Below, one piece after another: positions 5,170 to 47,762 of a stretch of DNA of 64,000 nucleotides. The position numbers were made by a program, and so were the translations under genes. The notes below the pieces were generated by a model. That model saw nothing but the letters and a program-made list of their open reading frames with translations. It searched no databases and was not told the origin of the DNA. The stretch is from Escherichia phage phiWec181: the sequence record LC739534.1; one strand, written 5' to 3'. Positions within the stretch are counted from its first letter, which is position 1, and the number at the start of each line of letters is the position of its first letter.

Positions 5170-6581
5170 ATCATCGCTTTTCCCTATCAATTATTCTATA
5201 TATACCTGTTATTTTTGACACCCCCTTTGGTCAAATATTAATCGGCAAAATATCTGGGGGTACTCTATAAAATGATGCCCCCTGTTCCTGCAATTTATCG
5301 AGGAGAATATCATTCGACTATCATCGGCAAAGAGACAGAAAAGCCTTTGGTAGCAAGGATTTATGGCGAGTACGTCAGGACTGCTTAACGCGAATTTTTC
5401 GGCCCCTCCACTTCTGCGAGCCGGAATCCTCAAATATCAATGAGAATAATTATCATTATCATTCGTATTCAATAACTTAGGCGATCTTTTCCCCTGCTAT
5501 AAGGTCGGGCCTAACTTAACCATCACTTTTCAAACAATCCTTTATCAATCAACTACTTAACAACCTAAACATATGATTACTACGGTGTAAAGGTGCCGCC
5601 CATAACAGACTACCTATAAAATAGATGAGAATGATTATTATTCAGACAATTCTTACAACAAATCGACCAACAAATCAAGAATTTTCTTATTTTTATTCAC
5701 GTTTAAGAGAACGTGCTCAACATTCCGCTACGCGTAACGGTTCGCCCCCAAAAGATTAGCCTTTGCTTTCCTGTATATTTATACACTATGTGCAAGGTGT
5801 CGCTACACGCTCGCCTTGCCCCGCATAATCCTTCACTGTGCTAATGATTTCATAGTGCAACAATAACACTTATTATTATATTACGCTTAATTATTCTTAC
5901 ATACAATGCTAATAATAAGCCAGCGTAATTAGTGTAAGCGTAATACGCTTGCAATAATTGCAAGCTACATAATCACAAGAAATAACTATCACCGATAGTT
6001 ATGATTGTGGGGGTGTAGTTGGCTTATTATTAGCTCGCTACGTGTCCGGCGTAGCGTGCTAATGATGAGGCTTGGAATGATTCATTTTGCAATTATTACA
6101 GTCTTCACTATTTTGATAATAGTTGTTCTTTTAATGGTTTCATTTGTTATCGTTAGTTAGTTGGTTGTTTTGTAGTGTTATCGTTATCTTGCTTAGTATT
6201 CATCACGGTTTGATTGTTTGTCGTTATCAATCATCTTTCTATTATTCCTTTGATTATGATTAGTTTGCTTATTGTTTTAGGTTGTTGGTTGGTTAGTTGT
6301 TGCGAACTATTATCAACATTATAGTTATGCACTTATATTGCATAGATACGCAAGGGTAGATGATAATGGTTATCATTGCACTGGAAAGGAAGAAAACAGC
6401 CTTTTTCGGTTGTTTGTTGTTGGTTGTTGATCTATTTTAACCGCTCTAAATAGCTCTCTAACAGCCTGTTTACCTGGGGTGTATGGTTATTCGTTTGCTG
6501 GTTGATTAGCTCGATACCGCGATTTATTCAGTTTTGTTCTGTGTCGGTTTTTCATAGGCGGAATCTATCAACATTGTTCGG
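5170..6581. other. 1.4 kb non-coding region rich in palindromes and G/T-skewed short repeats
   Basis: No credible ORF; perfect inverted repeats (ATAACTATCACCGATAGTTAT, TTGCAATAATTGCAA, AGCGTAAT/ATTACGCT) and GTTATCGTTA-type repeats on one strand. Confidence 0.6.
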
Positions 6582-6621
6582 GCAAAAAGAAAGGGCGCTT
6601 GGTGCGCCCCTTGTTTTGTTG
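6582..6621 (-). terminator. intrinsic terminator (GGGCGC-N5-GCGCCC hairpin with U-run)
   Basis: GC hairpin 6593-6609 followed on minus strand by TTTCTTTTT; lies just 3' of gene 6626-7045. Confidence 0.6.
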
Positions 6622-6625
6622 TCGA

Positions 6626-7945: not shown

Positions 7946-8081
7946 GTAGAATTGTAAAGATTTGATAGTTTGTCTCTTTGTTGTTTTGTTGTTTGATAGA
8001 TGTTAGCTATCAATATATAGCGGGGTCGTCCGGTGATTACCTCCCCCGTTGCCAGTGCCGCCCGTTCAATAAGCATAACAA

Positions 8082-8112
8082 AAAACAGGACAAAAGCAAG
8101 CCCTGTTTTGTA
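8082..8112 (-). terminator. candidate intrinsic terminator
   Basis: ACAGG/CCTGT hairpin followed by TTTTTGTT on minus strand, 3' of gene 8117-8320. Confidence 0.35.
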
Positions 8113-12530: not shown

Positions 12531-12629
12531 TGTGTTATCCTCTCGCTTGCTTTGAGAACTATTCCCGCCGCCCTATGAATTAAATATACACTATCCCAAA
12601 ATGATTGCAAGCCTTTTTCTAAATTATTT
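12531..12629 (-). promoter_or_regulatory. promoter + 5'-UTR hairpin cassette (GC hairpin variant)
   Basis: Hairpin and promoter hexamers between genes. Confidence 0.45.
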
Positions 12630-19230: not shown

Positions 19231-19504
19231 GATCTTAACTCCAGGTGATGAATGATGTTTTTTGTTGGTTGACGGTGGATTATGGAGATCCTCACCTTTG
19301 CCCGTCCTGCATTGCGCCCTCCTGTTGTTTATTGTCGTTGTGCCTCGCCCCCCTCGACAAGATTAATACTACGCTACCAGGTGCGGAACGTCAACGACTT
19401 TTTCAATCTTTTTTATTTTCTTTTTGCTTGCTATATATAAAGGAAAGGGCTATCATCTTTCTACCGCGCCAACCAGGGCGCACAACAGAAGAAAGGGCGA
19501 CACC

Positions 19505-19771
19505 ATGACAACTACTACATTACACCTTATGCACTCGTTAGGCTGGCAAGGCGGCACGGTCCACCAGGTAGCAAGCGCAACGGGCTTAAAGGTTGAAACA
19601 GTTCTCAACCTGGGCGATCATAAAGTGGAAGAGATAGACCATTTTGATCCGTTCGCTGATGGTTATCTCTGGGCTTGCAGTGGCGGCGGGGAAAGCAAGA
19701 TACCGCCAGCCGCGCGGGGCGATATGCATTTTTGGTTAGGTGTTCTCTCCTGGCAAGAAAACAAAAAATAA
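19505..19771 (+). CDS. hypothetical protein (88 aa) in GC-rich island
   Basis: Only plus-strand ORF here with ATG start; weak RBS. Confidence 0.35.
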   Translation: MTTTTLHLMHSLGWQGGTVHQVASATGLKVETVLNLGDHKVEEIDHFDPFADGYLWACSGGGESKIPPAARGDMHFWLGVLSWQENKK

Positions 19772-19774
19772 TCT

Positions 19775-19802
19775 TGACAAGCCCAGGGATCGGGCTTATA
19801 CT
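19775..19802 (+). promoter_or_regulatory. near-consensus sigma70 promoter (TTGACA, 16 nt, TATACT) with no downstream ORF
   Basis: Hexamers read directly; no plus-strand ORF over 30 aa for the next 6 kb. Confidence 0.55.
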
Positions 19803-20029
19803 GTTTTACATACAGAAGAGGAAGCGCCACCCCACGGCGTAAAGGCGGGGCTAACATACCAGGGGCACTGGTTGGAAGGTCGATCGCCGGGAGGCTGGGC
19901 GCTATATATTTGTAAAGAAATGTAAAGATAAAATAATCGCTTGCTTTCCTGGCTGGATCTGTTATTCTTATTACATGGCGAGGGGACACGGGAGCGCGAG
20001 ACAATCACCGGACCTGCCCGTCATTCTGC

Positions 20030-20150
20030 AAATGAGAAAAATTCTCATTTGCAAATAAGACTCATTCGCATTTAATAATTGAATGAGAATCATTCTCATT
20101 CTCATTCGTATTTCGATTTTAAGTGAGAATAATTCTCATTTCGGTAATTT
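20030..20150. repeat. three palindromic TGAGAAT-N-ATTCTCA sites (operator-like)
   Basis: TGAGAAAAATTCTCA, ATGAGAATCATTCTCAT, GTGAGAATAATTCTCAT read directly. Confidence 0.6.
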
Positions 20151-20151
20151 T

Positions 20152-20354
20152 CACGTAAACTTTAGAATTTGCTTTTCAACTTTCACTTTTGTAAAAGCAA
20201 AAAAACTTTAAATACCTGGTGCGCGCGACTTTTTAAAAAATTTTTCTCGGTTTTTTGCTTTGAAATCTGGCCCACCAATTTGAGATAGTGTACGTAAACT
20301 TTAGAATTTGGTTTTGGATTCTCACTTTTGTAAACTCGTAAAAAGTTTAAATAA
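20152..20354. repeat. two ~60 bp direct repeats (ACGTAAACTTTAGAATTTG...TTTGTAAA...TTTAAATA), iteron-like
   Basis: Copies at ~20152-20214 and ~20291-20354, ~85% identical, AT-rich; TTGAGATA repeated three times nearby. Confidence 0.6.
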
Positions 20355-20481
20355 TTGTAGGGATTTTGAGATAGTTTGCTTGTAAGGTTTGAGATAATCC
20401 TTCCCGAAGATGTTACGCAGCCTACAGCCTACCTGAATGCTCGTCTAACGAGATTAACTCTAAAAGATGAGTGTTGGTGTA

Positions 20482-20522
20482 GCTAAAGAGAAAAGGCTCT
20501 CTACGGTGTTGTAGGAGCCTTA
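20482..20522 (-). terminator. intrinsic terminator of minus-strand operon
   Basis: Hairpin AAGGCTC...GAGCCTT followed on minus strand by TTCTCTTT, 3' of gene 20592-21119. Confidence 0.5.
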
Positions 20523-20591
20523 TTTCTGTGGCACAAAGTTGACGTATTCTTTTTAAAAACGAATTTTTTCAAAATATCACGAATATCGCCT

Positions 20592-21119
20592 TTATGGTAT
20601 TTTGGCTGGGAACAGGATTTTAATCAGATTGTTGTGGTATTGTCCTAAAAGATTCTGCCCTTTCCAGTTGGCAGGATTAAGCACCCCTGGTTCGTACATA
20701 CCCATTCCAATTCCGTAAACCTTATCATAAGGACTCGCCTCAACGAACGTTTTGAATTGGTACAGTCGCAAGTCAGAATAAAGATCAGGGTTCTGTGTAT
20801 ACTTCAAGCATAAGCCTCGCATTACGATACGCTCTCGGTACTCTTCCCACATGTCATTATTAAAACCAGACACCGCTCGACCCATGCGCTTGTAGTATGC
20901 CTGTCCCTTCTCGTCGTCACGCTTCATTGAGTGATCAAGGATAGCTGCTGCGATTACCTGATCCTTGAACAGCAAAGCCTTACGCCACATCATGTATTGC
21001 TCTACACAACAGAAAGTTTCATTGTACCCTGGTTCCGTCTCTGTGAATGGTGCAATGTACCAATTGCTAAACACATCTTTATGTGAAAAGAAGAATACAT
21101 ATTCATTAGTTATTCGCAT
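20592..21119 (-). CDS. NADAR/YbiA-like domain protein (175 aa)
   Basis: Translation shows FFxxxxxFSNW, CxEQxMMxxKA and VEASPxDxVYGIG with NLLG, matching the YbiA/NADAR pattern as I recall it. Confidence 0.6.
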   Translation of the reverse strand: MRITNEYVFFFSHKDVFSNWYIAPFTETEPGYNETFCCVEQYMMWRKALLFKDQVIAAAILDHSMKRDDEKGQAYYKRMGRAVSGFNNDMWEEYRERIVMRGLCLKYTQNPDLYSDLRLYQFKTFVEASPYDKVYGIGMGMYEPGVLNPANWKGQNLLGQYHNNLIKILFPAKIP

Positions 21120-21330
21120 TTTTCATGCCTCTTAAGACTTCAGCTTGCCCGTCTTGAAAAGCTTTCATCAGAACTATCTTAAGATTGACTTCCAAGCGTT
21201 CTTCATCCTCTTTATAACAATCCAACACTGCCTTAAGTTCATCATAGTGGTTCAGAATAGGTTTAAAGATTTCATGATCTGCTAAACGTGCCATAGTTTC
21301 TCCTTTGTTAGTCCATCCACCAGTAGCCAT
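21106..21330 (-). CDS. hypothetical protein (74 aa)
   Basis: ORF overlapping neighbours, operon context. Confidence 0.5.
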   Translation of the reverse strand: MATGGWTNKGETMARLADHEIFKPILNHYDELKAVLDCYKEDEERLEVNLKIVLMKAFQDGQAEVLRGMKNANN

Positions 21331-21673
21331 AAACTGCGTCTGCGTCGATGAGTTTGTGTTTGTTGTTCCGCATGTAGTCTAAGATAAGTAGACGTTTATT
21401 GTATCTGGAGAGATTATGACCCTCTTTTCCGCCATAGTCAAAATATTTTGCAAGACTTTTACACTCAAACAAAATCAGTTCGGGAGTTTCTTCACATTGG
21501 TCTGTCTGGTACACTTGACGGATGATCATGTATACGTCATCGTCTTCCGCTAAGTGCTCTACTGGTCCACACCCAGCAGGAATAAATTCATAGTCCCATC
21601 GAATCAGATGTTTCTCTACTGCTTCAAAGAAATCCATTTTTTCGCTACGCATGATCTGAACATCAATTAACAT
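21308..21673 (-). CDS. hypothetical protein (121 aa)
   Basis: ORF, operon context. Confidence 0.55.
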   Translation of the reverse strand: MLIDVQIMRSEKMDFFEAVEKHLIRWDYEFIPAGCGPVEHLAEDDDVYMIIRQVYQTDQCEETPELILFECKSLAKYFDYGGKEGHNLSRYNKRLLILDYMRNNKHKLIDADAVYGYWWMD

Positions 21674-22679
21674 AATTTTCCTCCTGTCTCATTATTCCAC
21701 CTGCTTGGTTGATAGCACTTAAGACAACAGCCAAATCCTCACGCAGGAAGGTTTCACTATGACCGTCTTTCATGTGCAACGCTTCCACACAGCCGATAGA
21801 CGGTAGGATCTGATCAGTCTTAGATTTTAGCTTACTCTCTAACGCCCTGCAAGCCTGGTAGGACGGCAGATCAAACAATGCTACACGTTGCATAAAGTAG
21901 TTATTATTTGCATTCTGAATCTTCAAACGTATATCACTATCCTTTGCAATCCCCAGCTTGAAAGCTCCCGTATCTTCTCCATACTCATCAAGGATAACGT
22001 TGATGTAAAATTCTTGCTGTGATCTGCCTTTACATTCAGAACAACCATTCCCACTTAGATACTTATTAGGTGTTATCGTTTGTTCTCCGTGCTCACTACA
22101 TAAATATTTAAACTTAGACATGGTTCCCACCTTACCAACGAACCCTATAAACTGGTCCCCTCGTTCCTGGCAAGCTTCAGTCATACGGAAAATCCATTGC
22201 GCAGGAGTGTAACGATGGTTTTTAGAACAACGGCAAGCAAGCAGCCCATCTCTAAGACTGCTCCTCGTTACTTCAAACCTACCGTTACACACGCCAGCCT
22301 TTACATATTCGTCATGAGAACATACGGAACACTTAACTATCCAATAAGCCGCCCATCCTTTACTATCTAATCTATCACTACGATAATACTCACGCGGAAC
22401 GTTATCAGGACACGCTTTGTTAAAGGTTGTGATATGGATTGAATCATCAATTAAACATGTTTGCCTTATTGCTTCCACCCTACAACCTTTACAACCACTT
22501 CCTATTTTAGCATTATCTATAGAAGTTGTTCTCCATTCCCCATGTATAGAACATTCACAGGTTAGTTTAGTGCGTGCCCCCTTCCATTCACCATGCCACC
22601 CCGTAATGGTCCACGGTTTATCCTGGTAAGCTTGTTCTATTTCTTCCTGATATTCCTCCCAACTTTTAGCCCTCATCAT
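21663..22679 (-). CDS. zinc-ribbon repeat protein with C-terminal T5orf172/GIY-YIG-like domain (338 aa)
   Basis: Multiple CxxC/CxC pairs; C-terminal FKLGIAKDSDIRLKIQ...KDGHSETF shared with paralog 26247-27200. Confidence 0.55.
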   Translation of the reverse strand: MMRAKSWEEYQEEIEQAYQDKPWTITGWHGEWKGARTKLTCECSIHGEWRTTSIDNAKIGSGCKGCRVEAIRQTCLIDDSIHITTFNKACPDNVPREYYRSDRLDSKGWAAYWIVKCSVCSHDEYVKAGVCNGRFEVTRSSLRDGLLACRCSKNHRYTPAQWIFRMTEACQERGDQFIGFVGKVGTMSKFKYLCSEHGEQTITPNKYLSGNGCSECKGRSQQEFYINVILDEYGEDTGAFKLGIAKDSDIRLKIQNANNNYFMQRVALFDLPSYQACRALESKLKSKTDQILPSIGCVEALHMKDGHSETFLREDLAVVLSAINQAGGIMRQEENYVN

Positions 22680-22689
22680 CCCCCCTACA

Positions 22690-22716
22690 ACAAATGCCCC
22701 TTGCGGGGCATCTTTA
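22690..22716 (-). terminator. intergenic hairpin (attenuator/terminator-like)
   Basis: ATGCCCC-TTGC-GGGGCAT stem-loop between genes; modest U tract. Confidence 0.35.
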
Positions 22717-23856
22717 TTAGAACACGCTACTTAAGGTTGCAGATCGTGTAGTGGTTGGTTCCAGAACCACACGGAACGTATCCCCAGGTTTATCGCTCAC
22801 TACTACAATCTTACCACCTTCGATCAGGTCACACTTCAAACCTTCGGCAGTAGCTTTCAGGTCGATGCGTGGATCGCCATCATCATCCAGGATAACGTAG
22901 CTGCTATCTTCGAGAGGCTCCAGTTCTTCGTCTTTCACGGCTTCCAGGTAGATGTTCAGTTCACATGCACCAGACAAGAACTTGGTAGGAGTGAACTCAT
23001 GCCAGTTGTTGACCCAGTTAGGCTTGATAGCTTTACCGTTGACAACAATAGAGCTAATCGTCCAGCGTGCATCGTTACCCAGAGAGATACCCATCATCTC
23101 CAGACAGGTCTTGAACGTCATTTTCGGATAGAAGTTTAACTCTTCTACGATCCCTTGAATAACATCGAAAGACAGTTCAGTGCTAACATCCCACAAACGT
23201 TGGAAGCTTTCAACATGTTTGCGATTCTTCAGATTCTTGTCCAGGTAGTCCAGCATAGTTTCAATAGACAGTTTGTCGTAGTTGAAGCTATAGAAGATAC
23301 GGCTCGGACGGTTGACGAAGTATTCCGAGATGTATCCGCTGTTCTTTGTCAGCATGAACAGTTTGTTACCGCTACCTGTGCCATCCAGCAGAGTCAGCAG
23401 TGCTTCCTGATCTTCCTTCTTGGAATACACTTTGTCGAACTCATCGAACAGTACTACTGCGCGTTCAGAGATCTTACTCATGAACTCCAGGAAATTGGCA
23501 TCAGAATATGGCTGCGTTACCAGAATAGTTGGGATTCCCAGGTCTTCCGCTTCCAACAGAGTGTTACTGATCAGTTTTGCCAGCATTGTCTTGCCACTGC
23601 CTTTTGTACCCGACAACAGGACACCTGTGTTCTTACCTTCTTTACTACGACGAGCGAAGGTACGGATAACGTGGGCTGCACGTTCTTTGGTTTCCCCGTA
23701 CAGGCGATCAGGAATCGTGAACTTATCAGCGCGACTAAGAGAATAGTTACCATGTGGATCACAATTGACAGTCCAAACGCCAGCGGGGAGTTTATCAACC
23801 TCTACACCAAAATCTTTATTAACAATTGCAACATCCCCATAAACTGTGTATTTCAT
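22717..23856 (-). CDS. AAA+ family ATPase (379 aa)
   Basis: Walker A GTKGSGKT and Walker B VVLFDEFD in translation; RBS AGAAGAGGAGAAAG. Confidence 0.7.
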   Translation of the reverse strand: MKYTVYGDVAIVNKDFGVEVDKLPAGVWTVNCDPHGNYSLSRADKFTIPDRLYGETKERAAHVIRTFARRSKEGKNTGVLLSGTKGSGKTMLAKLISNTLLEAEDLGIPTILVTQPYSDANFLEFMSKISERAVVLFDEFDKVYSKKEDQEALLTLLDGTGSGNKLFMLTKNSGYISEYFVNRPSRIFYSFNYDKLSIETMLDYLDKNLKNRKHVESFQRLWDVSTELSFDVIQGIVEELNFYPKMTFKTCLEMMGISLGNDARWTISSIVVNGKAIKPNWVNNWHEFTPTKFLSGACELNIYLEAVKDEELEPLEDSSYVILDDDGDPRIDLKATAEGLKCDLIEGGKIVVVSDKPGDTFRVVLEPTTTRSATLSSVF

Positions 23857-23881
23857 TTACTTTCTCCTCTTCTGTTGGAAT

Positions 23882-23916
23882 AGACGTATTATCTCTTGTC
23901 TAATACGTCTTGTCAA
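23882..23916 (-). promoter_or_regulatory. promoter (TTGACA, 17 nt, GATAAT) overlapped by perfect 10 bp inverted repeat AGACGTATTA/TAATACGTCT
   Basis: Read directly; the IR spans the spacer and -10. Confidence 0.55.
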
Positions 23917-26246: not shown

Positions 26247-27200
26247 ATGAAATACGAAGATTTTAAACAAATAGTTAAAGACGATGTGGTATTTGAGAAC
26301 TTACAGGAAGGTTGTGAAGTCTTAGGTTGGACAGAAAGAGATAGAAACTTTGCAAAAATATACGTAATACGTTGTAGTGTTTGTGCCAAAGACCCCGAAA
26401 TGTATGGAGATGGTCTTTTTACAGCTACAAAAGGGCGTTTAGTGAAAGGTCAGAAATGTTGCGCGTGCGCTGTATCCTTTAAATACAGTCAAAACCAACA
26501 CCTAATTCTGCTAAACAGGCATTTAAGTGTCGCAGGGTACAGCATAGTTTCTATTGGTGCTTGGGAGTGTTCTAAGACGAGAATAGAGTTTAGTTGTGAG
26601 AATGGACACACGAAGAACAGAACCCTGGCTCAAGCAAAGGTAGTAGAACCTTGTAAACAGTGTCTTGAAGAAGGCTGTACAAAACACAAACAAGATGAGG
26701 CAGAGGCAAAAATTATGAAGATAATAGAAGATAAATGTTTACCTTATGTATTTGTAGGGTGGGATACTTCTTACAAGAATGTAACTTCAAAATTCAACCT
26801 CATCTGTTCGGATCACGGTTTAAAAACAATAAGATACGCTTGTTTCCTAAATGGTCATTTTTGTAACGAGTGTTCTGGTAGAAATTGCCTAAGTCTTTAT
26901 TTATTAGGAGTTTATGATAGAGACTTGTTGGTAGGTTTAAAATTTGGCATCTCTCAGAGTCCAGTAAGAAGGGTTCAACAGTTAAATAAAAGGAACTTAT
27001 TTAAATGTAAAATACTACAGATTTGGACTTTTACATCACATGATCAAGCTGTACGGATGGAAACATTATTAAAGAACACATTGCGAACTGGAATATTTAC
27101 TAAAAGAGAGATGAAAGATGGTCATACAGAAACCACAGAAGTTACTAATTTAGAAACCATAATGGACCTTATGACCTCATCTCATGGATTGGTTAGTTAA
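26247..27200 (+). CDS. zinc-ribbon repeat protein with C-terminal T5orf172/GIY-YIG-like domain (317 aa)
   Basis: RBS AAGGAGGAAAC; Cys pairs; LKFGISQSPVRRVQQL...KDGHTETT, paralog of 21663-22679. Confidence 0.6.
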   Translation: MKYEDFKQIVKDDVVFENLQEGCEVLGWTERDRNFAKIYVIRCSVCAKDPEMYGDGLFTATKGRLVKGQKCCACAVSFKYSQNQHLILLNRHLSVAGYSIVSIGAWECSKTRIEFSCENGHTKNRTLAQAKVVEPCKQCLEEGCTKHKQDEAEAKIMKIIEDKCLPYVFVGWDTSYKNVTSKFNLICSDHGLKTIRYACFLNGHFCNECSGRNCLSLYLLGVYDRDLLVGLKFGISQSPVRRVQQLNKRNLFKCKILQIWTFTSHDQAVRMETLLKNTLRTGIFTKREMKDGHTETTEVTNLETIMDLMTSSHGLVS

Positions 27201-27612: not shown

Positions 27613-28050
27613 ATGCAAAACATCAAACTGACTTGGACCGAAGCTAAAGAAGCAATGAAGGAAGGTAGACGTGTTAAACACGAGTATTTCTGTGGTGGGG
27701 AATGGTTTGAGATGCAATATGGTGTTATTCTGGACGAACATGGTTATAATATGACTGATTGGTATCGTGACGAAGCTTGGCAGGATGATGGTTGGTCTGT
27801 GGTTGAGAAAGAAGGTAATGAGGAAGAAGGACTGTTGTCTAATGTAGAGCGCGAAATGCGGGAAACAAAGGTGCCCGAACTGGACTACCATCACCTGGAA
27901 CTTCTTGTGGCAGCATCTTTCGCTACTGGAGATACAATGTGGCAAACTCCGGTGTCCCGTGTCGATAACCAAAATAAACCGTCTGCCCGTAATCACAAGC
28001 TTTACAAAGGTAAAGGTCATAACAAACTGAAGAAAGGAAAGAAGAAATGA
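27613..28050 (+). CDS. DUF2829-like protein (145 aa)
   Basis: RBS GAGAGGAG; N-terminus TWTEAKEAMKEGRRVKHEY...GEW resembles DUF2829 as I recall it; Lys-rich tail. Confidence 0.5.
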   Translation: MQNIKLTWTEAKEAMKEGRRVKHEYFCGGEWFEMQYGVILDEHGYNMTDWYRDEAWQDDGWSVVEKEGNEEEGLLSNVEREMRETKVPELDYHHLELLVAASFATGDTMWQTPVSRVDNQNKPSARNHKLYKGKGHNKLKKGKKK

Positions 28051-31814: not shown

Positions 31815-32183
31815 ATGAAAGTCTTGAACTTCTACCATTTAGGTAAAGTTGTTCCCGACACTGCAATATACATTGGACGCGCGATGCCCCACTTCGGGTT
31901 GAAAGCGTCAAAGTTTGCCAACCCGTTCAAACTGAAAGAGGATGAACCAAGAGGTGCTACCATTCAAAGATACAAAGAGTGGTTGTGGGATCAGATCCGT
32001 TCTGGTAAGATAACTCTTGAAGATTTGTTGGAGTTGGAAGGTAAAGATGTAGTCTGCTTTTGCTCGCCCCAGAAATGTCATGGAGATGTGCTCGTTGCAG
32101 CCGTGGCATGGGCGCGAAGGGAATACGATAGACGTAATCCACCGTTTACGGATGGGTATTGGAACTGGGAGGAAAATCTATGA
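31815..32183 (+). CDS. DUF4326-like small protein (122 aa)
   Basis: Motifs YIGR, FANPF, CFCSPQKCHGD resemble DUF4326 as I recall it. Confidence 0.5.
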   Translation: MKVLNFYHLGKVVPDTAIYIGRAMPHFGLKASKFANPFKLKEDEPRGATIQRYKEWLWDQIRSGKITLEDLLELEGKDVVCFCSPQKCHGDVLVAAVAWARREYDRRNPPFTDGYWNWEENL

Positions 32184-32544: not shown

Positions 32545-33054
32545 ATGTTCTTTGACGTAGATTCCTTATTCGTTGCCACTGCTGGACAATCTGCGGTTAA
32601 CGCAGAGTTTGAAGAAAGGGAGGCGTGGATTGATGCTCATAACTATGATCCTACAAACCTAAACTGGTGCTGTATGGATATCAAAGGTATGAGCAGGGAT
32701 AGTGCGTTTAGGGCATACTACGCTGTATATACTCTTGACAATCTTTATCAGTATTTTGTATTCCGTAATATGATTGTCAACCTTAATCTTGCTGGGAGAC
32801 TAAAGAACAAAAAAGAGTTTACTTTAGGGCACTACATACCGTTCAAAAAAGGTGGTGAACATTTTCCTTCCAACTGGACAGTGCAAATAAGAGTTGAAAA
32901 TAACAACGCAGGTGATACAATACCAAAAGTCAAAACAAAATGGTCATGGGAGAAACAGGAACGTTATATACGTTCCCATCTCCCACCAAACCTGAGAGAG
33001 CCGTATGCGAGTCGGGCCTTTCATTTAATGAATATTGTCAAGAGTTTTTACTAA
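32545..33054 (+). CDS. HNH endonuclease-like protein (169 aa)
   Basis: C-terminal H-x5-GGEH-x4-N...N pattern typical of HNH nucleases. Confidence 0.5.
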   Translation: MFFDVDSLFVATAGQSAVNAEFEEREAWIDAHNYDPTNLNWCCMDIKGMSRDSAFRAYYAVYTLDNLYQYFVFRNMIVNLNLAGRLKNKKEFTLGHYIPFKKGGEHFPSNWTVQIRVENNNAGDTIPKVKTKWSWEKQERYIRSHLPPNLREPYASRAFHLMNIVKSFY

Positions 33055-33064
33055 GGAGGATTTA

Positions 33065-34666
33065 GTGTCTAATACTTTGAGTTTCACTCCAACCGAAGAG
33101 CAATTTGCTATTGAGCGTGCTTTCGGGGAAAACCGTTTTGTAACTATTCAAGCAAAATCTGGTTCGGGGAAAACATCTACTCTATACATGTTGGCAAATG
33201 GCACAGACAAGAGCATCCTGTACCTGGCATTCAATAAGAGCATGGCGGAAGAGGCGCGTCGCAAGATGCCGCACAATGTAGAGTGTCGAACTCTGCACTC
33301 AATCTGCTATCAGAAGCTTCCACAAAACTTACGTCACAAACTCTCGCGTCCTGAAGGGAAGTATGTGAATGTGGCGGGAACAGGTAGCGAAATTGCCAAG
33401 AAGTTTAAGATCCAAAACCTTATTGATAAAAACGGAAAGACTTTGGTCACTCGTGCTATGATCGGTTTAATGGTTAAACAAACTTTGGCTAAATATGAGT
33501 TTTCAGATGATGAGCATATCTCTTTGAAACACTTCCCTAAAATGCACATCTCTGATCTGAAACGTAAGAATGTGAATGAGAATAAGCTGATCGCAGAAGT
33601 CGTTAAATATGCAAAACAATTGTGGCGTGAGCGTATTGATCCTAACTCGGAAACGATCATGACTCATGACACCTATGTGAAACTGTTCGAACTATCGGGC
33701 GAAGATTTAGGGTATGATATCATCTTTGGTGATGAGTTCCAGGATGTTAACCCTGCATTCCTGTCTATCCTACGTAACGCAGAAAAGGCCAGTCGTATTG
33801 TGGTTGTAGGCGATGAGTTCCAGAGTATTTATCAGTTCCGAGGTAGTCAGAACATGATGAAAGAGACGGCTCAATATGGTGTAGAATTACCATTGACAGC
33901 ATGTTTCCGTTTTGGTCCTAAAGTGGCAGACATTGCTAATGCGATCCTTAGCGATAAAACTCCACTGGCCCATCCACTGGTAGGGAAAGGGTATAACACG
34001 GTGACAGGTAGCTTCCACTCGGATATAGTGGACTTCTCCAAACCGTACACAATCATCTTCCGTAAAAACCTGACGTTGCTTATGGATGCAATGGATCGTA
34101 TTGCGAACGGAGAAGATATCAATATTAACGTTGACACCAAAGATTTTATTGCTATGGTGGACAGTGTGAATGCGTTGCGTCGAGGAGATATTGACAAAGT
34201 GAAGCATGAAACCGTTCTACCGTATGCAGACTGGCAGGAGTTTGTGGATTGTGCGGAATCAGATCCAGACGCTAAACGTCTACTGAATATTGTTGTTTCA
34301 GGTAAGGCTAACAACATTGCGTACACACTCCGTATGCACCGTAACTCACCTACAGCAAAGGTGACACTGACCACAGCACACAAATCGAAAGGTTTGGAAT
34401 GGGACCAAGTTATTGTTGCAAATGACTTCCCTTCGAACTATGATAAGAAGACACGCGAGTGGGTAGGGCTGGAAGAATCTGAACGTAACCTTCTATATGT
34501 TGCTCACACACGTTGTATTAAATGTTTGCAGTGGAATGAGACAGTGCATGAGATCTTAACCATGCAGCAATTAGGAGGAGACACATCTCCTAAAATGACG
34601 GAAGAAGATGAGATGGTTGCAGCATTGGCTCGTAAGATCAAGCAGATTCGATGCGAGGAGTATTAA
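33065..34666 (+). CDS. SF1 (UvrD/Rep/PcrA-like) DNA helicase
   Basis: GTG start with AAGGAGGA RBS; motifs AKSGSGKT, GDEFQD, VVGDEFQSIYQFRG, TAHKSKGLEWD. Confidence 0.8.
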   Translation: MSNTLSFTPTEEQFAIERAFGENRFVTIQAKSGSGKTSTLYMLANGTDKSILYLAFNKSMAEEARRKMPHNVECRTLHSICYQKLPQNLRHKLSRPEGKYVNVAGTGSEIAKKFKIQNLIDKNGKTLVTRAMIGLMVKQTLAKYEFSDDEHISLKHFPKMHISDLKRKNVNENKLIAEVVKYAKQLWRERIDPNSETIMTHDTYVKLFELSGEDLGYDIIFGDEFQDVNPAFLSILRNAEKASRIVVVGDEFQSIYQFRGSQNMMKETAQYGVELPLTACFRFGPKVADIANAILSDKTPLAHPLVGKGYNTVTGSFHSDIVDFSKPYTIIFRKNLTLLMDAMDRIANGEDININVDTKDFIAMVDSVNALRRGDIDKVKHETVLPYADWQEFVDCAESDPDAKRLLNIVVSGKANNIAYTLRMHRNSPTAKVTLTTAHKSKGLEWDQVIVANDFPSNYDKKTREWVGLEESERNLLYVAHTRCIKCLQWNETVHEILTMQQLGGDTSPKMTEEDEMVAALARKIKQIRCEEY

Positions 34667-40175: not shown

Positions 40176-40832
40176 ATGACTATTAAACATATCTCTTTTG
40201 ATGTATGGAACACACTGATCACAGCAAACCCCAATTACGCAGATATGCGAGCGTGGACTATCGCAAAATACGGGGATATTACGGAAGTAGAAGCAAGAGC
40301 AGCTTACAAGAAGATCAAAAAGGAACTGGACAATGCCGCACTTCAGGGAACAGCCGAGTGTGCAGCATATGCCTGGGAAAGACTTGGTTACGAACTTGGG
40401 ATAACACCTTTGAAGTCTGCAAAGCTTCGTTTCGAGTGTGAACAGTGGTTCCTTAAGTTTCCACCGCATGTGGCTGTGGATTTACCGATGCACTTGCTGT
40501 ATCTTTCGGGGCGTTATGATTTGAGCATCAAGAGTAATACCAACTTCATATCAGGAGATATCTTGCGACGTGCCTGTAAGTTTGAAGGTTGGAATTGTTT
40601 TGAGTTCACACATTTCTCGGATGAAGCTTTACTTTGTAAACCAGATCCGCGATTCTTTGCTCGCACGATCACTTATTCTCCAATCCCTCTGGTAGGGCAG
40701 GAAGTGTTGCACGTAGGTGATAGTGAAGAATATGATGGAAAATGTGTTGACGTAGGATTTAACTTCTGTCATATTAAGAACCCTAACGACTTGTTAGATA
40801 AACTTGCTAAAGGAGAACTTGTTAATGCGTAA
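40176..40832 (+). CDS. HAD-superfamily hydrolase-like protein (218 aa)
   Basis: N-terminal FDVWNTL resembles HAD motif I; C-terminal HVGDSEEYD resembles motif IV. Confidence 0.55.
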   Translation: MTIKHISFDVWNTLITANPNYADMRAWTIAKYGDITEVEARAAYKKIKKELDNAALQGTAECAAYAWERLGYELGITPLKSAKLRFECEQWFLKFPPHVAVDLPMHLLYLSGRYDLSIKSNTNFISGDILRRACKFEGWNCFEFTHFSDEALLCKPDPRFFARTITYSPIPLVGQEVLHVGDSEEYDGKCVDVGFNFCHIKNPNDLLDKLAKGELVNA

Positions 40833-41652
40833 TCAAACTCAAATCTTTGCTCACAAATTCGATAGTCTGGAAACTGCTCGCTTTGATATTCGTGACTATT
40901 CCAAACTGAAGTTTGGCAGCAACCAGGCGGCTCGCCGTATGGGGCGAACGCTGGCAGTCTCTTTCTATGACTTGGTAGTCAAGAATATGCCGGAAGAAGA
41001 ATTTGTGGTGATTCCTTCACCTTACAACCATGTGCATAACGCAGCAACCATGATGACCAATCAGTTCATCAACTTCCTGAACCTGTTGCTGTTGAATCAC
41101 AAGGGTAGCCGTGCAGTAGAATTGGATACGATCCACCGCAAGGTGAGTTACATTAACGATTATGGTTTCCTGGACAAAGCGAGCCGTAAGAAACTGATTG
41201 ATGGTGACACCTTCTATTGCAACAAAGATTTTTGGGGCAACAAGAAGCTGATCTTCATTGATGATGTGAACATCACGGGAACTCATGAAGACAAACTGAT
41301 TGAGATCCTGGATGAAAATAAAGTTACGAATGATGTTTACTTCCTGTATTTTGCGAAGTATACTGGTAATCAAGCAGACACAGAGGCTAAACTGAACTTC
41401 AACCATATTAACACGACAGATGCTTTTGTTAAGATGATCAATGAAGAATGTGATGCGCAGTGTCTTGTTCGTCCTATCAAGTATTTGATGGGACAAACAC
41501 CGGAAGAGTTTAAAATCATTCTTTCCCGTTTGCCGCACCAATACGTAGAAGCACTGTTCTTTGGGTGTCTTGGGGAAGGTTATGATAAGATCGAGAAGTA
41601 TTCTGAAAACTTCGTCTTCCTGAACCGTTACTTTAACCAGCATATCCTGTAA
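40825..41652 (+). CDS. phosphoribosyltransferase (PRTase)-fold protein (275 aa)
   Basis: ATG 40825 with AAGGAGAAC RBS; KKLIFIDDVNITGTHED matches PRPP-binding loop. Confidence 0.6.
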   Translation: MRNQTQIFAHKFDSLETARFDIRDYSKLKFGSNQAARRMGRTLAVSFYDLVVKNMPEEEFVVIPSPYNHVHNAATMMTNQFINFLNLLLLNHKGSRAVELDTIHRKVSYINDYGFLDKASRKKLIDGDTFYCNKDFWGNKKLIFIDDVNITGTHEDKLIEILDENKVTNDVYFLYFAKYTGNQADTEAKLNFNHINTTDAFVKMINEECDAQCLVRPIKYLMGQTPEEFKIILSRLPHQYVEALFFGCLGEGYDKIEKYSENFVFLNRYFNQHIL

Positions 41653-41661
41653 GGAGGGAAA

Positions 41662-42144
41662 ATGTTGAAGGTTGTTACTGGGAATCTGATCGATGCCGCC
41701 AAGAATGGGAAAGTGAACGTTATAGCCCACTGTTGTAACTGTATGTGTAATATGGGTGCAGGGATTGCTCCGCAAATTAAACGAGCATTTCCTTATGCAT
41801 ATGCAGCCGACTTGGATACAGCGGCAGGTGATCAAAGCAAACTGGGTTCTTTTAGTTTAGGGGTGCCGGAGGAAGTGTCTGACCCACTGGTTTATAACCT
41901 GTACGGACAGTACCGTTACGGGTATAACGGTAAAGGTCGTCAGTTGGACTATGATGCCCTGTACGATGCTCTTGAGGCTATGGCAAAGGATCTCCACAAA
42001 TGGGTGAACACATCTGCCAAACATAAGATTGGTCTACCTATGATCGGAGCAGGGTTGGCAGGAGGTAATTGGGCTATCATTGAAGTGATGATTGAAGAAA
42101 CTTTAGTAAAAACAGGTCACGATGTGACTATTTATAAACTTTAA
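41662..42144 (+). CDS. macrodomain protein (160 aa)
   Basis: N-terminus VVTGNLIDAAKNGKVNVIAHCCNCMCNMGAGIA matches macrodomain GDI...AIVNAAN...GGGV pattern. Confidence 0.7.
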   Translation: MLKVVTGNLIDAAKNGKVNVIAHCCNCMCNMGAGIAPQIKRAFPYAYAADLDTAAGDQSKLGSFSLGVPEEVSDPLVYNLYGQYRYGYNGKGRQLDYDALYDALEAMAKDLHKWVNTSAKHKIGLPMIGAGLAGGNWAIIEVMIEETLVKTGHDVTIYKL

Positions 42145-42157
42145 GAGGAGAAATAAT

Positions 42158-42379
42158 ATGGGTGTTGTTGCAGGTGTTCTGGCAGTAGTTATCGTGTTTG
42201 TTCTGGCTTTCCTGATTAGTATGATTCCAGCATGGCTTCTGCTGCTGGCTTATAACTACGTTGTTGAAATGATGGGTCACACAGATATCACTGTTCCTAT
42301 CACCTTCTGGACTGTGGTGTGTGTGGCATTTATCATGGCTGTACTACGTGGGATCTTTTCCTCAAGTTCTTCAAAATAA
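42158..42379 (+). CDS. small membrane protein (73 aa)
   Basis: Two hydrophobic helices; RBS AAGAGGAG. Confidence 0.6.
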   Translation: MGVVAGVLAVVIVFVLAFLISMIPAWLLLLAYNYVVEMMGHTDITVPITFWTVVCVAFIMAVLRGIFSSSSSK

Positions 42380-42460
42380 GTGTTGACAAGGTTTTAGAAT
42401 AGAGTAAGATGTATCACATGAGGCGGGGAGTGGTTCCCCGCAAAGAGAAAGGAGAAAATA

Positions 42461-43435
42461 ATGCAACTTGGTTTTCCAATCATTGATGTAGTGGTGTTGG
42501 TAGGTATTCTTGTTCTGTCGATCTGTGTTGACTTTTTTGGTCATCGTGAAAACAAGGAGATCTCTTTCAAATCCGCTGTGGCTTGGTCAGTATTCTGGAT
42601 TGGTGTGTCTTTAGCCTACTACGGTTTTGTATACTTCCAGCACGGCGCAGCTTTTGCAAACTTATTCTTGAGTGGATATGTGTTAGAGAAGTCGCTCTCG
42701 GTAGATAACTTGGTAGTGTTTGTAGCAGTGTTCTCCAGTTTCGGGATTAAGAGCACACACTTACAACACAAAATTCTACTCTGGGGTATTGCAGGTGCGA
42801 TTGTCTTCCGAGGTGTGTTTGTAGCAGCAGGGACTTATCTGCTAAGTTTGGGTTGGTTTGTTAATATCATCTTCGGTGCTGTTATCCTGTTCTGTGCTTT
42901 TAAAATGGTAATGGCTGGCGGTGATGATGAAGAAGTGGATTACTCTAAACATTGGGCGACACGCTTTGTACGTAAACTATTCCCAGTATCGGATCAGATG
43001 GATGGCGAGAAGTTCTTCACAATTAAGAATGGTGTTCGTGTAGCAACTCCGGCTCTGGTTTGTGTGTTCGTGATGGAAATGGTGGATGTGATCTTTGCAG
43101 TAGACTCGGTTCCGGCTGTAATTGCAGTGACACAAGAACCACTGCTTGTATTCTCTTCGATGCTCTGTGCAATCTTAGGCTTACGTGCTCTGTTCTTTGT
43201 TCTTAGTGTGGCCCTGAAGTATCTGGTTCACCTGGAAAAAGCAGTTATCGCAGTCCTGGTGTTTGTTGGTGTGAAACTGATGTATCACCCGTTTGCAGAA
43301 ACGCTGCACGCAAAAGTGAGCTTCCTGCCAGCGCATATTGACCCGACGATCAGCATGTATATCGTGCTTGGTACTCTGACCCTGGGCGTGATTGCAAGTT
43401 TCATCTTCCCTGAAAAAGAAGAAGCTACCGCTTAA
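42461..43435 (+). CDS. TerC-family integral membrane protein (324 aa)
   Basis: Multi-pass hydrophobic translation with YVLEKSLSVDNLVVF, which I recognise as the TerC signature. Confidence 0.7.
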   Translation: MQLGFPIIDVVVLVGILVLSICVDFFGHRENKEISFKSAVAWSVFWIGVSLAYYGFVYFQHGAAFANLFLSGYVLEKSLSVDNLVVFVAVFSSFGIKSTHLQHKILLWGIAGAIVFRGVFVAAGTYLLSLGWFVNIIFGAVILFCAFKMVMAGGDDEEVDYSKHWATRFVRKLFPVSDQMDGEKFFTIKNGVRVATPALVCVFVMEMVDVIFAVDSVPAVIAVTQEPLLVFSSMLCAILGLRALFFVLSVALKYLVHLEKAVIAVLVFVGVKLMYHPFAETLHAKVSFLPAHIDPTISMYIVLGTLTLGVIASFIFPEKEEATA

Positions 43436-43443
43436 TACCAATG

Positions 43444-43468
43444 AACCTCCTTCGGGAGGTTTCTTACT
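43444..43468 (+). terminator. candidate intrinsic terminator
   Basis: AACCTCC-TTCG-GGAGGTT hairpin followed by TCTT. Confidence 0.5.
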
Positions 43469-43483
43469 AACATAGGAGGAATT

Positions 43484-43834
43484 ATGTCTGTATATTTTGA
43501 CGATGTTCAGGAATATGTTTGGTGTCTTTCTGGCACAATCTCGGAAGTAGAAGCTGCGATTCAAGAGGTTTTTCCTTACGCTTATGTAGAAGTTAAACAG
43601 GCACCTCCTATGGATCTTCCCCCTAATGTGGAAGCTTGTTGTGGTTCCGGCGAGGGTACAGTCATCCCAGTTCTGCGTTACGAACTACAAGCAGCAAGTG
43701 CAAATGTCGATGATATTATTACAGAAATTAAGGCGTATGGTTTCTGGACCTCTCCTTACGCTAAATGGGATAACTCTGACACTTGGGATTTATTCTTCTG
43801 GGATAATGAGACAGATGACGAGGTATTTCTGTAA
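43484..43834 (+). CDS. hypothetical acidic protein (116 aa)
   Basis: RBS AGGAGG. Confidence 0.6.
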   Translation: MSVYFDDVQEYVWCLSGTISEVEAAIQEVFPYAYVEVKQAPPMDLPPNVEACCGSGEGTVIPVLRYELQAASANVDDIITEIKAYGFWTSPYAKWDNSDTWDLFFWDNETDDEVFL

Positions 43835-44076
43835 TGAAAGTTGTTTGGGTTGTGTTTGAAAATATTTGTTTTGCAATAGGTTTGTTCGTCATACTTTTTG
43901 TGTTGACAAACGTGATCAATGGTAGTAAAGTATCCCTATACAAAGACGGGGAGCAGATTTACTGCTTCTCTGGAGATTTCAAACACACCTGTGTTAATAT
44001 GCAGAAAGAAGAAACTCCACACCAGAAGTCAAGAGAAGATTTTGATTGGTGGTCACTACTTAATAACTTAAGATGA
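43834..44076 (+). CDS. membrane-anchored small protein (80 aa)
   Basis: N-terminal hydrophobic helix. Confidence 0.5.
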   Translation: MKVVWVVFENICFAIGLFVILFVLTNVINGSKVSLYKDGEQIYCFSGDFKHTCVNMQKEETPHQKSREDFDWWSLLNNLR

Positions 44077-44085
44077 GGAGAAAAT

Positions 44086-44955
44086 ATGAAAAATATTCAG
44101 CCATTACCTGTAGTTGGGGATTTGTATTTCTTATCTGGTACGGGTTATTCCCCAGAAGCATTAGAAGTTAACAAGAACGTCTTCCGAGTGAAAGAAATAA
44201 GAGAAGAATGTAATGAAATTGTTTTCGAAGGTATTACTAATGGAGTTCTTCAGTATGCAGAGATGCGTAGCTGCTTCCAGCAACCTTTCCGCCCGTTGGC
44301 AGACGAGTATAAGATTGCGGTAAATATTGATGATCTTAAAAAAGAACCAGGGTTCGAAGCGTTCTCTACTTTTATGGAAGATACGTATGTGGATGTAAAG
44401 AGATCTAACCTTTTCGCGGGGGATAATTTCCCTCACTTTGTGTCAGAGAAAAGTGATGGTTTTTCCGACTACGTGGATGCTGTAAACTATGATGTTTCTG
44501 AATTGACAGGAGAGCAGGATTATCTTCTGCTGTCTCCTAAAGATTTCATGCGCGTAATGTATGCCGTAGCCGAACAGAAAAAGAAGAAAGAAAAGCTTGT
44601 AGCCAAAAAAGTTAAAAAGGTTAAAGGTAAACGTGCCAAAGGTGTTCCAGAACGTAAGCGCACCGTAAATAAGGCGACAGTCTTCTTTACCAGCGGTGAG
44701 CAATATACGATCAAAGGTTTTAAAGAAGTGGGTTACACTGCTGGCGGAAACCTTCTGTTCTTCACAGTTGCAGAAGAAGGAGAAACTTTTATCCGTTTTT
44801 CCAATATGTGGGAAATGTCTGTAGAAGATATTAAAAGTGTTGTTGTTTTAGGTGTACATAAGAGTTTCATTATTAATCAAATCTCTGATTTCAGTGCACA
44901 CTTGACAGCACCAGATTTCGAAACTACCACAACAAGCTTTAACTTCAAGGTGTAA
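44086..44955 (+). CDS. hypothetical protein (289 aa) with Lys-rich segment
   Basis: RBS GAGGAG; internal KKKKEKLVAKKVKKVKGKRAK. Confidence 0.65.
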   Translation: MKNIQPLPVVGDLYFLSGTGYSPEALEVNKNVFRVKEIREECNEIVFEGITNGVLQYAEMRSCFQQPFRPLADEYKIAVNIDDLKKEPGFEAFSTFMEDTYVDVKRSNLFAGDNFPHFVSEKSDGFSDYVDAVNYDVSELTGEQDYLLLSPKDFMRVMYAVAEQKKKKEKLVAKKVKKVKGKRAKGVPERKRTVNKATVFFTSGEQYTIKGFKEVGYTAGGNLLFFTVAEEGETFIRFSNMWEMSVEDIKSVVVLGVHKSFIINQISDFSAHLTAPDFETTTTSFNFKV

Positions 44956-44958
44956 TGC

Positions 44959-45549
44959 ATGAATACCGAGAGAGATTTAAAACTCTTGTGGTGGGAAGTG
45001 ATGCAGGAGATCAAGGAGGATTTCCCTGTTTACTACAACATGCTACGTGAAGCTGGATATACGGCTTGCGTTAGGAACAAAGTGAATAACTCTTTCGGTT
45101 GGTGCAACTACCGAGAAAAGATTGTTGTTGTGAATTGGCACTTGCATAAAAACTCCACAAGGGATATGATAGTGGACACAATGAAGCATGAGATTGCTCA
45201 TGCGATCGACGGTTGTATGGGTAAGTTCAGTCGTCATGGACCACACTGGCAAAAGCTGGCAGCAGAGTTGGGAGCCAATCCTAAAGCTACTTCCAAAGAA
45301 CCGTTAAACCATGAGTACAAATATGTTCTTGTTTTGGTGGACAGATTTGCCACAAGATGTGTTAGAGGGTATAATCGTAAACCTAACCGTATGACTCCAG
45401 GGAAACAACCACATATTTGGTTGAAGAGTGATAAAGAGGGGACAGAAGGAAAAATATGGTTGTATAAATGGGAAGATTGGGTTAAAGTAGCTAAAGAATA
45501 TGGTGTTTCACCTTACACAAGAGAAATAGAAGAGGAGAATGAAGAATGA
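44959..45549 (+). CDS. SprT-like zinc metalloprotease-motif protein (196 aa)
   Basis: HEIAHAI (HExxH) preceded by conserved Cys/Trp region. Confidence 0.5.
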   Translation: MNTERDLKLLWWEVMQEIKEDFPVYYNMLREAGYTACVRNKVNNSFGWCNYREKIVVVNWHLHKNSTRDMIVDTMKHEIAHAIDGCMGKFSRHGPHWQKLAAELGANPKATSKEPLNHEYKYVLVLVDRFATRCVRGYNRKPNRMTPGKQPHIWLKSDKEGTEGKIWLYKWEDWVKVAKEYGVSPYTREIEEENEE

Positions 45550-47761: not shown

Positions 47762-47762
47762 T

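Follow-up and report, generated by a model that had tools for sequence, protein, structure and literature searches.

An orphan NADAR protein of Escherichia phage phiWec181 as a probable AdfN-type counter to DarTG1

A 64,000-nt stretch of Escherichia phage phiWec181 (sequence record LC739534.1; hereafter, the window) was analyzed around the minus-strand gene at positions 20592..21119. The predicted product of this gene, a NADAR-domain protein, is most probably an AdfN-type DNA ADP-ribosylglycohydrolase, a single-domain orphan that resembles an antitoxin and would undo the action of the toxin DarT1. For this protein, referred to below as phiWec NADAR, the analysis established the family and fold, the conservation of the active site, the lack of an adjacent toxin gene, and orthology as well as synteny with AdfN-Bas60.

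The NADAR gene and its annotation in related phages

The gene is a 175-aa open reading frame in the window ORF list, running from ATG to TAA. All motifs that the first-pass annotation had named were found in the translation: FSNW (F17–W20), EQYMMWRKA (E40–A48; the EQxMMxxKA motif), VYGIG (V134–G138), and NLLG (N156–G159). The HMM search that the same annotation had proposed as a check gave a clear match to the Pfam NADAR model PF08719 (E-value 1.2e-33, 117.1 bits vs. a gathering score of 35.1 bits; model positions 3–154 of 163). The NCBIfam model TIGR02464 was matched with 109.7 bits, above its cutoff of 73.7, and PHROG 1017, whose function is unknown, with an E-value of 2.4e-48. The score against NF053876, the model of the DS-32 NADAR anti-phage protein, was 13.8 bits, under the cutoff of 240.

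Escherichia phages phiWec179 (LC739533) and phiWec186 match the window region with 100% identity, and Phapecoctavirus genomes match it with approximately 82%. The gene is labeled “hypothetical protein” both in LC739533 (BDU12204.1) and in phiWec186. The phiWec phages were assigned in a 2025 paper to a proposed new genus of Stephanstirmvirinae, “Wecvirus”; NADAR and ADP-ribosylation are not mentioned there. About 70 phage records contain an ortholog with at least 80% identity, and a detectable homolog is present in 718 records. A permissive pattern scan of IMG/VR yielded true homologs at 2 of 120 loci. Relatives in other phage records are labeled “GTP cyclohydrolase II,” “COG3236,” or “N-glycosidase”; these labels stem from the naming of RibA/RibD fusions (COG3236), not from any cyclohydrolase domain.

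Active site and predicted fold

A phmmer search against PDB sequences returned a single match, the NADAR of Phytophthora nicotianae with ADP-ribose (PnNADAR; 8BAU; Schuller et al., 2023), with an E-value of 1e-13. A profile of 29 homologs reached 8BAU at 2.9e-37 and Escherichia coli YbiA (2B3W) at 7.4e-36, YbiA being itself a row of the alignment; the PDB structure of DarG1 was not reached by this profile. Among 39 homologs with 37–98% identity, E40, K47, G80, W91, and E127 were invariant, and K77, R81, and D132 were conserved in at least 90%. The catalytic residues, whose absence would have counted against the first-pass assignment, are thus all present, E40, K47, and E127 being invariant.

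Residues were mapped by counting along the phmmer alignment with 8BAU, where the numbering of the paper equals the chain index minus 2, and residue roles were taken from Schuller et al. (2023; PMC11543638). E40 and K47 correspond to E43 and K50 of PnNADAR and form the E-x6-K motif; the equivalent E88 and K95 of DarG1 from E. coli C7 are both essential (PMC11543638). Further equivalents are K77 = K75, G80 = G78, R81 = R79, V83 = V81, F86 = Y84 (adenine stacking), W91 = W89 and R95 = R93 (diphosphate contacts), E127, located in VEASPYD, = E125, D132 = D130, and Y135 = W133. By this alignment, K77, R81, F86, W91, R95, and D132 are the predicted ADP-ribose-binding residues, with their individual roles putatively those of the PnNADAR counterparts. 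The third catalytic residue lies opposite the distal ribose and differs between types: YbiA/NADAR proteins have Glu here, DarG1 has Asp, and T4-type proteins have His. According to the alignment, this residue is Glu in phiWec NADAR (E127), which is of neither the DarG1 type nor the T4 type.

The AlphaFold2 model, calculated with the 39-homolog alignment, had a mean pLDDT of 96.1 and a pTM of 0.89 and displayed an alpha-helical core with flanking small beta sheets, as in NADAR and YbiA proteins. Foldseek comparison of this model with the PDB gave only two significant matches, 8BAU (TM 0.80) and YbiA 2B3W (TM 0.70). PnNADAR, the closest solved structure, is a guanine-ADPr hydrolase that also has Glu as the third catalytic residue, and all classes of its ADP-ribose-contacting residues are kept in the phage protein. 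At the same time, PnNADAR is eukaryotic, shares approximately 27% identity, and has its core extended both N-terminally and internally. In the phage clade, Y135 and N88 replace W133 and D86, respectively, and seven residues (approximately residues 64–70) are inserted before the K77/R81 helix; in the alignment, this insertion distinguishes the Stephanstirmvirinae NADARs from all others.

Orthology with AdfN-Bas60

Phage NADAR proteins that counter DarTG1 were named AdfN by Johannesman et al. (2025; PMC11825919), who tested AdfN-T4 (gp30.3), AdfN-Bas32, and AdfN-Bas60. AdfN-Bas60 alone neutralized DarT1 in uninfected E. coli and restored plaquing of the unrelated phages RB69, T5, and Bas25 on hosts with DarTG1; it had no effect on DarTG2 (PMC11825919). 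The BASEL phage Bas60 is Escherichia phage PaulScherrer (MZ501100), now placed in Justusliebigvirus, and belongs to the same subfamily as the window phage. Positions 1–150000 of its 150,425-bp genome were scanned in six frames with the NADAR HMM, and a single NADAR was found, bas60_0111 (QXV83846.1; “putative YbiA-like N-glycosidase”; E-value 8e-70). Since it is the only NADAR ORF of the Bas60 genome, bas60_0111 is taken to be AdfN-Bas60.

phiWec NADAR is 57% identical to bas60_0111 over 172 aa, i.e., its full length (E-value 4e-68), and the same HMM detected one NADAR ORF in the window, as in Bas60. The flanking genes are syntenic: the upstream ATPase and CapR-protein genes are 67% and 38% identical in their products to bas60_0109 and bas60_0110, respectively, and the convergent 88-aa gene on the other side is 93% identical to bas60_0113. 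Because of the full-length identity, the single NADAR per genome, and the syntenic flanks, the phiWec gene, judged by sequence, is an ortholog of a validated anti-DarTG1 factor. Both proteins have a Glu-type site (E47, K54, and E134 in Bas60 numbering), both are single-domain orphan NADARs with no toxin gene nearby, and both are encoded at the end of an ATPase/CapR-protein/NADAR operon facing the conserved convergent gene. They differ in that the Bas60 loop after residue 27 is seven residues longer and in that the CapR and NADAR genes of the window phage are separated by two additional small ORFs.

Operon organization

The first-pass annotation had placed the gene at the distal end of a minus-strand operon, and this was borne out, with both the promoter and the terminator being predictions. 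Four co-oriented genes precede the NADAR gene, back to a sigma70-like promoter, TTGACA-17-GATAAT, at 23888..23916 of the minus strand, identified as a consensus match only (11 of 12 positions). The first gene of the apparent operon (22717..23856, minus strand) encodes a 379-aa AAA ATPase (PF00004; PHROG 2376). It is followed on the same strand by the gene of a 338-aa protein with three CapR homology domains (21663..22679; PHROG 681, “endonuclease”), a 121-aa ORF (21308..21673; PHROG 24465, function unknown), and a small ORF at 21106..21330 (PHROG 22330, function unknown). The latter is 74 aa as the longest ORF and 62 aa (21106–21294) in LC739533, and its stop codon overlaps the start of the NADAR gene by 14 nt. 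Neither of these two ORFs has a counterpart at the Bas60 locus. The neighbors of phiWec NADAR are thus the AAA ATPase, the CapR protein, and small ORFs, and no ART or DarT domain was found by Pfam in the operon or among the scanned ORFs of the window.

Approximately 70 nt past the NADAR stop codon, a terminator-like hairpin with a U-rich tail is located at 20484..20521 of the minus strand (hairpin 20521–20493; 11-bp stem with one bulge). The 126-nt stretch that contains it (20470–20595, minus strand) folds at −29.4 kcal/mol with a z-score of −4.0. A simple terminator scanner missed this hairpin, which is probably the end of the operon. Past it, an ORF-free gap of approximately 820 bp separates the operon from the convergent plus-strand gene.

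We also considered the ATPase, CapR, and NADAR genes as a general functional module and rejected this, since distant homologs were found among unrelated neighbors, namely AAA_28 and RNR, AbiEii and an AlkB-like gene, or, on a bacterial chromosome, QueF.

Comparison with other NADAR types

AdfN-T4 (gp30.3) is likewise an orphan phage NADAR that counters DarTG1, and the E-x6-K motif is shared. BLAST detected no similarity between the sequences (E-value 2.1), and the family HMM gave an E-value of 0.044 against gp30.3. NADARs of the T4 type group with DarG1, and their third catalytic residue is His. AdfN-T4 requires the context of T-even infection and does not neutralize DarT1 alone, whereas AdfN-Bas60 does.

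The substrate of DarG1 from E. coli C7 and Geobacter lovleyi is guanine-N2-ADPr on single-stranded DNA, and phiWec NADAR would, by analogy, perform the same chemistry. Unlike the phage gene, the DarG1 gene adjoins that of DarT1. DarG1 carries a basic N-terminal extension of approximately 45 residues, and its third catalytic residue is Asp. The core of phiWec NADAR starts at approximately residue 4, its catalytic Glu being at position 40 vs. 88 in E. coli C7 DarG1, and the DarG1-type N-terminal beta1-beta2-alpha1 extension is absent.

E. coli YbiA shares the fold and the Glu-type site with the phage protein, which also exceeds the TIGR02464 cutoff. However, the two proteins are 28% identical over 82 aa, and YbiA lacks the 11-residue loop at 139–150. 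YbiA is encoded in a LexA-controlled host operon (rhlE-ybiA-dinG-ybiB) and did not protect cells from DarT1 in the experiments of Cihlova et al. (2024).

Proposed function and alternative explanations

The toxin DarT1 ADP-ribosylates the N2 of guanine in single-stranded DNA (Schuller et al., 2023; PMC11543638). During infection of E. coli carrying DarTG1, this modification of single-stranded phage DNA would block replication. The phage NADAR could then bind the adduct, with the diphosphate contacted by K47, R81, W91, and R95, F86 stacked on the adenine, and E40 and E127 flanking the distal ribose. Hydrolysis of the N-glycosidic bond between C1'' of the ribose and the guanine would release ADP-ribose and restore the base, so that replication may resume. 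In such a scheme, phiWec NADAR would act as a type IV-like orphan antitoxin that requires no contact with the toxin. It is probably expressed early, as suggested by the place of its gene at the end of an operon of five genes behind a predicted host-type promoter.

According to Cihlova et al. (2024), hydrolysis of guanine-ADPr in vitro is common to all NADAR subtypes but protection from DarT1 in the cell is not: YbiA and T4 gp30.3 failed to protect uninfected cells. Since not every NADAR subtype with this activity protects cells, family membership alone does not guarantee a role in counter-defense, and the functional assignment rests mainly on the orthology with AdfN-Bas60. By analogy with this ortholog, phiWec NADAR would neutralize DarT1 and rescue phages from DarTG1. 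Further points weigh against the assignment: 43% of the residues differ from the tested ortholog, the TIGR02464 cutoff that is exceeded belongs to the YbiA-type riboflavin N-glycosidase model, and bas60_0111 is equated with AdfN-Bas60 through its uniqueness in that genome. On the whole, the HMM match, the active site, and the orthology with AdfN-Bas60 support the first-pass view, namely a NADAR/YbiA-like protein with a plausible role in clearing ADP-ribose from guanine and opposing DarT.

The protein could also be a broader nucleic-acid de-ADP-ribosylase, perhaps active on C-ADPr and RNA and against other ART-based defenses or toxins, with a main natural target other than DarT1; this reading overlaps the AdfN explanation. 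A wider substrate range is possible because the Glu at position 127 places phiWec NADAR with the “NADAR” and “YbiA” families, and Mikolcevic et al. (2026) reported removal of C-ADPr from both DNA and RNA by these families, an activity not shared by DarG1 and T4 NADAR. The family profile, too, reaches PnNADAR and YbiA and not the DarG1 structure, and Johannesman et al. raised undiscovered ART defenses as possible targets. However, E. coli has no known anti-phage system that generates C-ADPr, and the only demonstrated phenotype of the ortholog is anti-DarTG1, so we regard a main target other than DarT1 as unlikely. Degradation of soluble ADP-ribose-derived immune signals or toxins, such as cADPR variants, instead of DNA adducts was predicted from genomic context for most phage NADARs by Iyer et al. 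(2022; PMC9503650), who also tied the Macro and DUF4326 domains, both encoded in the window, to the processing of soluble ADPr derivatives. This prediction is older than the biochemistry: every NADAR tested since then hydrolyzes guanine-ADPr on nucleic acids, cleavage of a signaling nucleotide has been demonstrated for no NADAR, and the toxin from which the ortholog protects cells and phages is one that modifies DNA. Action on soluble signals is thus very unlikely.

Another reading is a YbiA-like housekeeping N-glycosidase that destroys reactive intermediates of riboflavin biosynthesis, the function named in the title of TIGR02464 (“riboflavin biosynthesis intermediates N-glycosidase”; 109.7 vs. 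73.7 bits) and echoed in the “GTP cyclohydrolase II” and “N-glycosidase” labels of relatives in several phage records. The Pfam scan of the window revealed no riboflavin genes, and neither a RibA/RibD fusion or neighborhood nor genes of the rhlE-ybiA-dinG-ybiB locus were found there. The similarity to E. coli YbiA is weak, YbiA itself hydrolyzes G-ADPr in vitro, and the ortholog has a demonstrated anti-DarT1 phenotype; a housekeeping role of this kind is scarcely to be expected. An antidote to the phage's own ADP-ribosyltransferase is brought to mind by T4, where gene 30.3 and alt are a few genes apart, and by the joint occurrence of ARTs and NADARs in myoviruses (Iyer et al.; PMC9503650). Yet the careful annotation of the Bas60 genome lists no ART, and none was detected among the scanned ORFs of the 64-kb window, phiWec179 having approximately 90 kb more; self-immunity is extremely unlikely. 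The AdfN-type, anti-DarT1 function stays the preferred explanation.

Other candidate counters to ADP-ribosylation

The first-pass annotation had also suggested that the phage may carry several independent counters to ADP-ribosylation or NAD-based immunity, listing macrodomain, DUF4326-like, and DUF2829-like genes. This suggestion found partial support, from the macrodomain and DUF4326 genes and not from the DUF2829-like gene. The macrodomain protein (160 aa; 41662..42144, plus strand), encoded outside the NADAR operon, passes the Pfam Macro threshold barely (23.0 vs. 22 bits). It is 35% identical to T4 Tk.4 (E-value 6e-23), described in a 2025 preprint as AdfM, an anti-DarTG2 macrodomain, and 49% identical to the macrodomain protein bas60_0070 of Bas60. 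The gene immediately follows those of PRTase_3 and HAD-like proteins where a Ter-type cluster (TerC, TelA, vWA-TerF, TerD) begins, and because of this context a metabolic role is also possible. The DUF4326 domain was confirmed with 70.8 bits in a 122-aa protein (31815..32183, plus strand); its link to ADP-ribose is a published prediction (PMC9503650).

The DUF2829-like ORF at 27613–28050 had no Pfam match at E ≤ 1 and no Tad2-like match among PDB sequences, and its identity as DUF2829/Tad2 thus found no support in these sequence searches. DUF2829 was matched by no other scanned ORF of the window in Pfam.

We tentatively suggest, as a conjecture that is rather doubtful at present, that the Glu-type NADAR of Stephanstirmvirinae is a general eraser of base-linked ADP-ribose, acting on guanine and cytidine in DNA and RNA, and that it forms a layered toolkit with the AdfM-like macrodomain, for thymidine-ADPr, and DUF4326. 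If true, such a toolkit would cover every known defense based on nucleic-acid ADP-ribosylation, including some that are still undiscovered in enterobacteria.

A conserved non-coding element downstream of the NADAR gene

The stretch 19270–20067 of the window is 89.5% identical to Bas60, whereas the flanking genes are only approximately 68–70% identical at the DNA level. Its non-coding part (approximately 19805–20100) has matches of 70–80% identity in 358 phage records of Stephanstirmvirinae and Vequintavirinae, the latter represented by Certrevirus, Seunavirus, Mydovirus, Henunavirus, and Vequintavirus; in most of these records, the element is unannotated. Read rightward, the whole element (19772–20140) comprises a conserved promoter TTGACA-17-TATACT (19774–19802), a highly conserved block of approximately 95 nt, an A/T-rich repeat, TGTAAAGA, another promoter-like site, and a second conserved block. 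Partial copies of the second promoter-like site are found upstream of minus-strand genes at 8017–8107 and 12564–12622. Last come four tandem 7-1-7 palindromes, TGAGAATnATTCTCA, at 20033–20138, which resemble the Fur-box core TGATAATnATTATCA. Both patterns are enriched in the window, the phage palindrome occurring 14 times against an expectation of 5.5 and the Fur-box pattern 22 times against 6.2; a second cluster is located in the other ORF-free gap (5441–6375).

RNAalifold predicted a structure of −11.5 kcal/mol for the conserved non-coding block with a covariation term of +0.39, and fold energies were alike on both strands. Among 18 sequences, the candidate helices were either invariant or lacked compensatory changes, and Rfam gave no match at E ≤ 1; these results give a structured RNA no clear support. 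Replication origin was considered as a role of the block and found no support in GC skew, the minimum of which lies at approximately 26 kb, at the strand switch. The block is not host-derived as judged by 5,426 E. coli genomes, none of which gave a match. Linkage between NADAR genes and the element across subfamilies was rejected, since the gene of approximately 176 aa that adjoins the element in SSE121 is not a NADAR.

Implications

The phage orphan NADAR (AdfN) is already known as a kind, and the closest validated member is that of a sister genus; the phiWec copy has stood unannotated. The current understanding of NADAR biology is unchanged by this gene. What the analysis provides is a well-supported function for a “hypothetical protein” gene of phiWec179 and phiWec186, together with the recognition of “GTP cyclohydrolase II” as a misannotation in many Phapecoctavirus records. 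Since phages of this group are under development as therapeutics for pathogenic E. coli, a probable anti-DarTG1 enzyme and a possible anti-DarTG2 enzyme may help in the prediction of host range. The clade of the validated AdfN-Bas60 is hereby extended across Stephanstirmvirinae.

A conserved non-coding element downstream of the NADAR gene

The gap between the NADAR gene and the gene convergent with it contains a conserved, unannotated element (19772-20140, plus orientation), recognized by DNA similarity across phage records. With 70-93% identity at the DNA level, it recurs in 358 records of Stephanstirmvirinae and Vequintavirinae phages, and homologs were located, among other phage sequences, at 33001-33390 (minus strand) of L005 and in L008-L017, L106, L113, and L146-L165. 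The flanking genes are less conserved than the element itself. Two strongly conserved blocks were distinguished; neither contained a conserved ORF, and the ATG of block E is replaced by ATA in many copies. Searches with the element yielded no match in Rfam or in E. coli genomes. Two sigma70-like promoters, both in the same direction, were predicted inside it. Partial copies of its segment "TGTAAAGA ... TTG-N17-TATTAT" were observed at 8017-8107 and 12564-12622 (both on the minus strand). These copies sit 5' of small minus-strand genes, a placement that points to an early promoter type used repeatedly, preceded by an A/T-rich motif.

At the 3' end of the element lies a cluster of 7-1-7 inverted repeats, TGAGAATnATTCTCA. 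These repeats are clustered in the two large ORF-free gaps of the window (20033-20138 and 5441-6375), with 14 matches vs. 5.5 expected from shuffling. They resemble the Fur-box core, TGATAATnATTATCA, and the Fur-box pattern gave 22 matches vs. 6.2 expected. The repeats may serve as operators, bound by Fur or by a regulator of the phage, or may form RNA hairpins. The second ORF-free gap (5434-6625, approximately 1.2 kb) is A/T-rich and carries GTTGGTT-type repeats along with the palindromes, which are the sole feature that it has in common with the gap at 19.8-20.6 kb.

Genes surrounding the element and labels of related records

Convergent with the NADAR operon is an 88-aa ORF (19505-19771, plus strand; PHROG 19316), which shares 93% identity with bas60_0113 of phage Bas60, a member of a different genus. 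Neighbouring proteins share 38-67% identity with those of Bas60, far below this value. Two proteins with CapR homology domains (PHROG "endonuclease") were detected, one within the NADAR operon (21663-22679, minus strand) and the other at the divergent strand switch (26247-27200, plus strand); they look paralogous.

Many records of Phapecoctavirus and Staphylococcus phages label their orthologs of the NADAR protein (20592-21119) "GTP cyclohydrolase II", a propagated mis-annotation originating from RibA-fusion naming (COG3236). Region 19500-23900 was matched by "Pseudomonas phage PsgM04F" (OR584014.1, database match H23; 97.5% identity at 77% query coverage) and by "Campylobacter phage A145" (MG065645.1, matches H34 and H98). 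The latter carries the Justusliebigvirus-type NADAR, the one with 57% identity, and an 89% match to the non-coding element. Both records match a region from an E. coli phage; the hosts named in them appear questionable, or else these phages are polyvalent.

Other candidate ADP-ribose-related genes

The 145-aa ORF at 27613-28050 (plus strand; PHROG 22208/3474), considered DUF2829-like in the first-pass annotation, gained no support for this assignment: Pfam gave nothing at E ≤ 1, and its PDB sequence matches were only spurious. The DUF4326 protein (31815-32183, plus strand) was recognized with 70.8 bits, and a PDB sequence search with it gave no informative match. DUF4326 is predicted to be rhodanese-phosphatase-like, processing ribose-linked phosphates of ADPr derivatives (Iyer et al., 2022; PMC9503650).

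A Ter-type stress-response cluster occupies 40176-49682 (plus strand throughout). It begins with HAD-like, PRTase_3 (ComF-like; 40804-41652), and Macro genes and includes TerC (42461-43435), SprT-like (44959-45549), TelA (45546-46658), vWA-TerF-like (47763-48563), and TerD (49080-49682). The macrodomain protein (41662-42144), encoded directly after the HAD-like and PRTase_3 genes, shares 49% identity with the Bas60 macrodomain protein and 35% (E 6e-23) with T4 Tk.4, newly named AdfM and reported to be an anti-DarTG2 factor.
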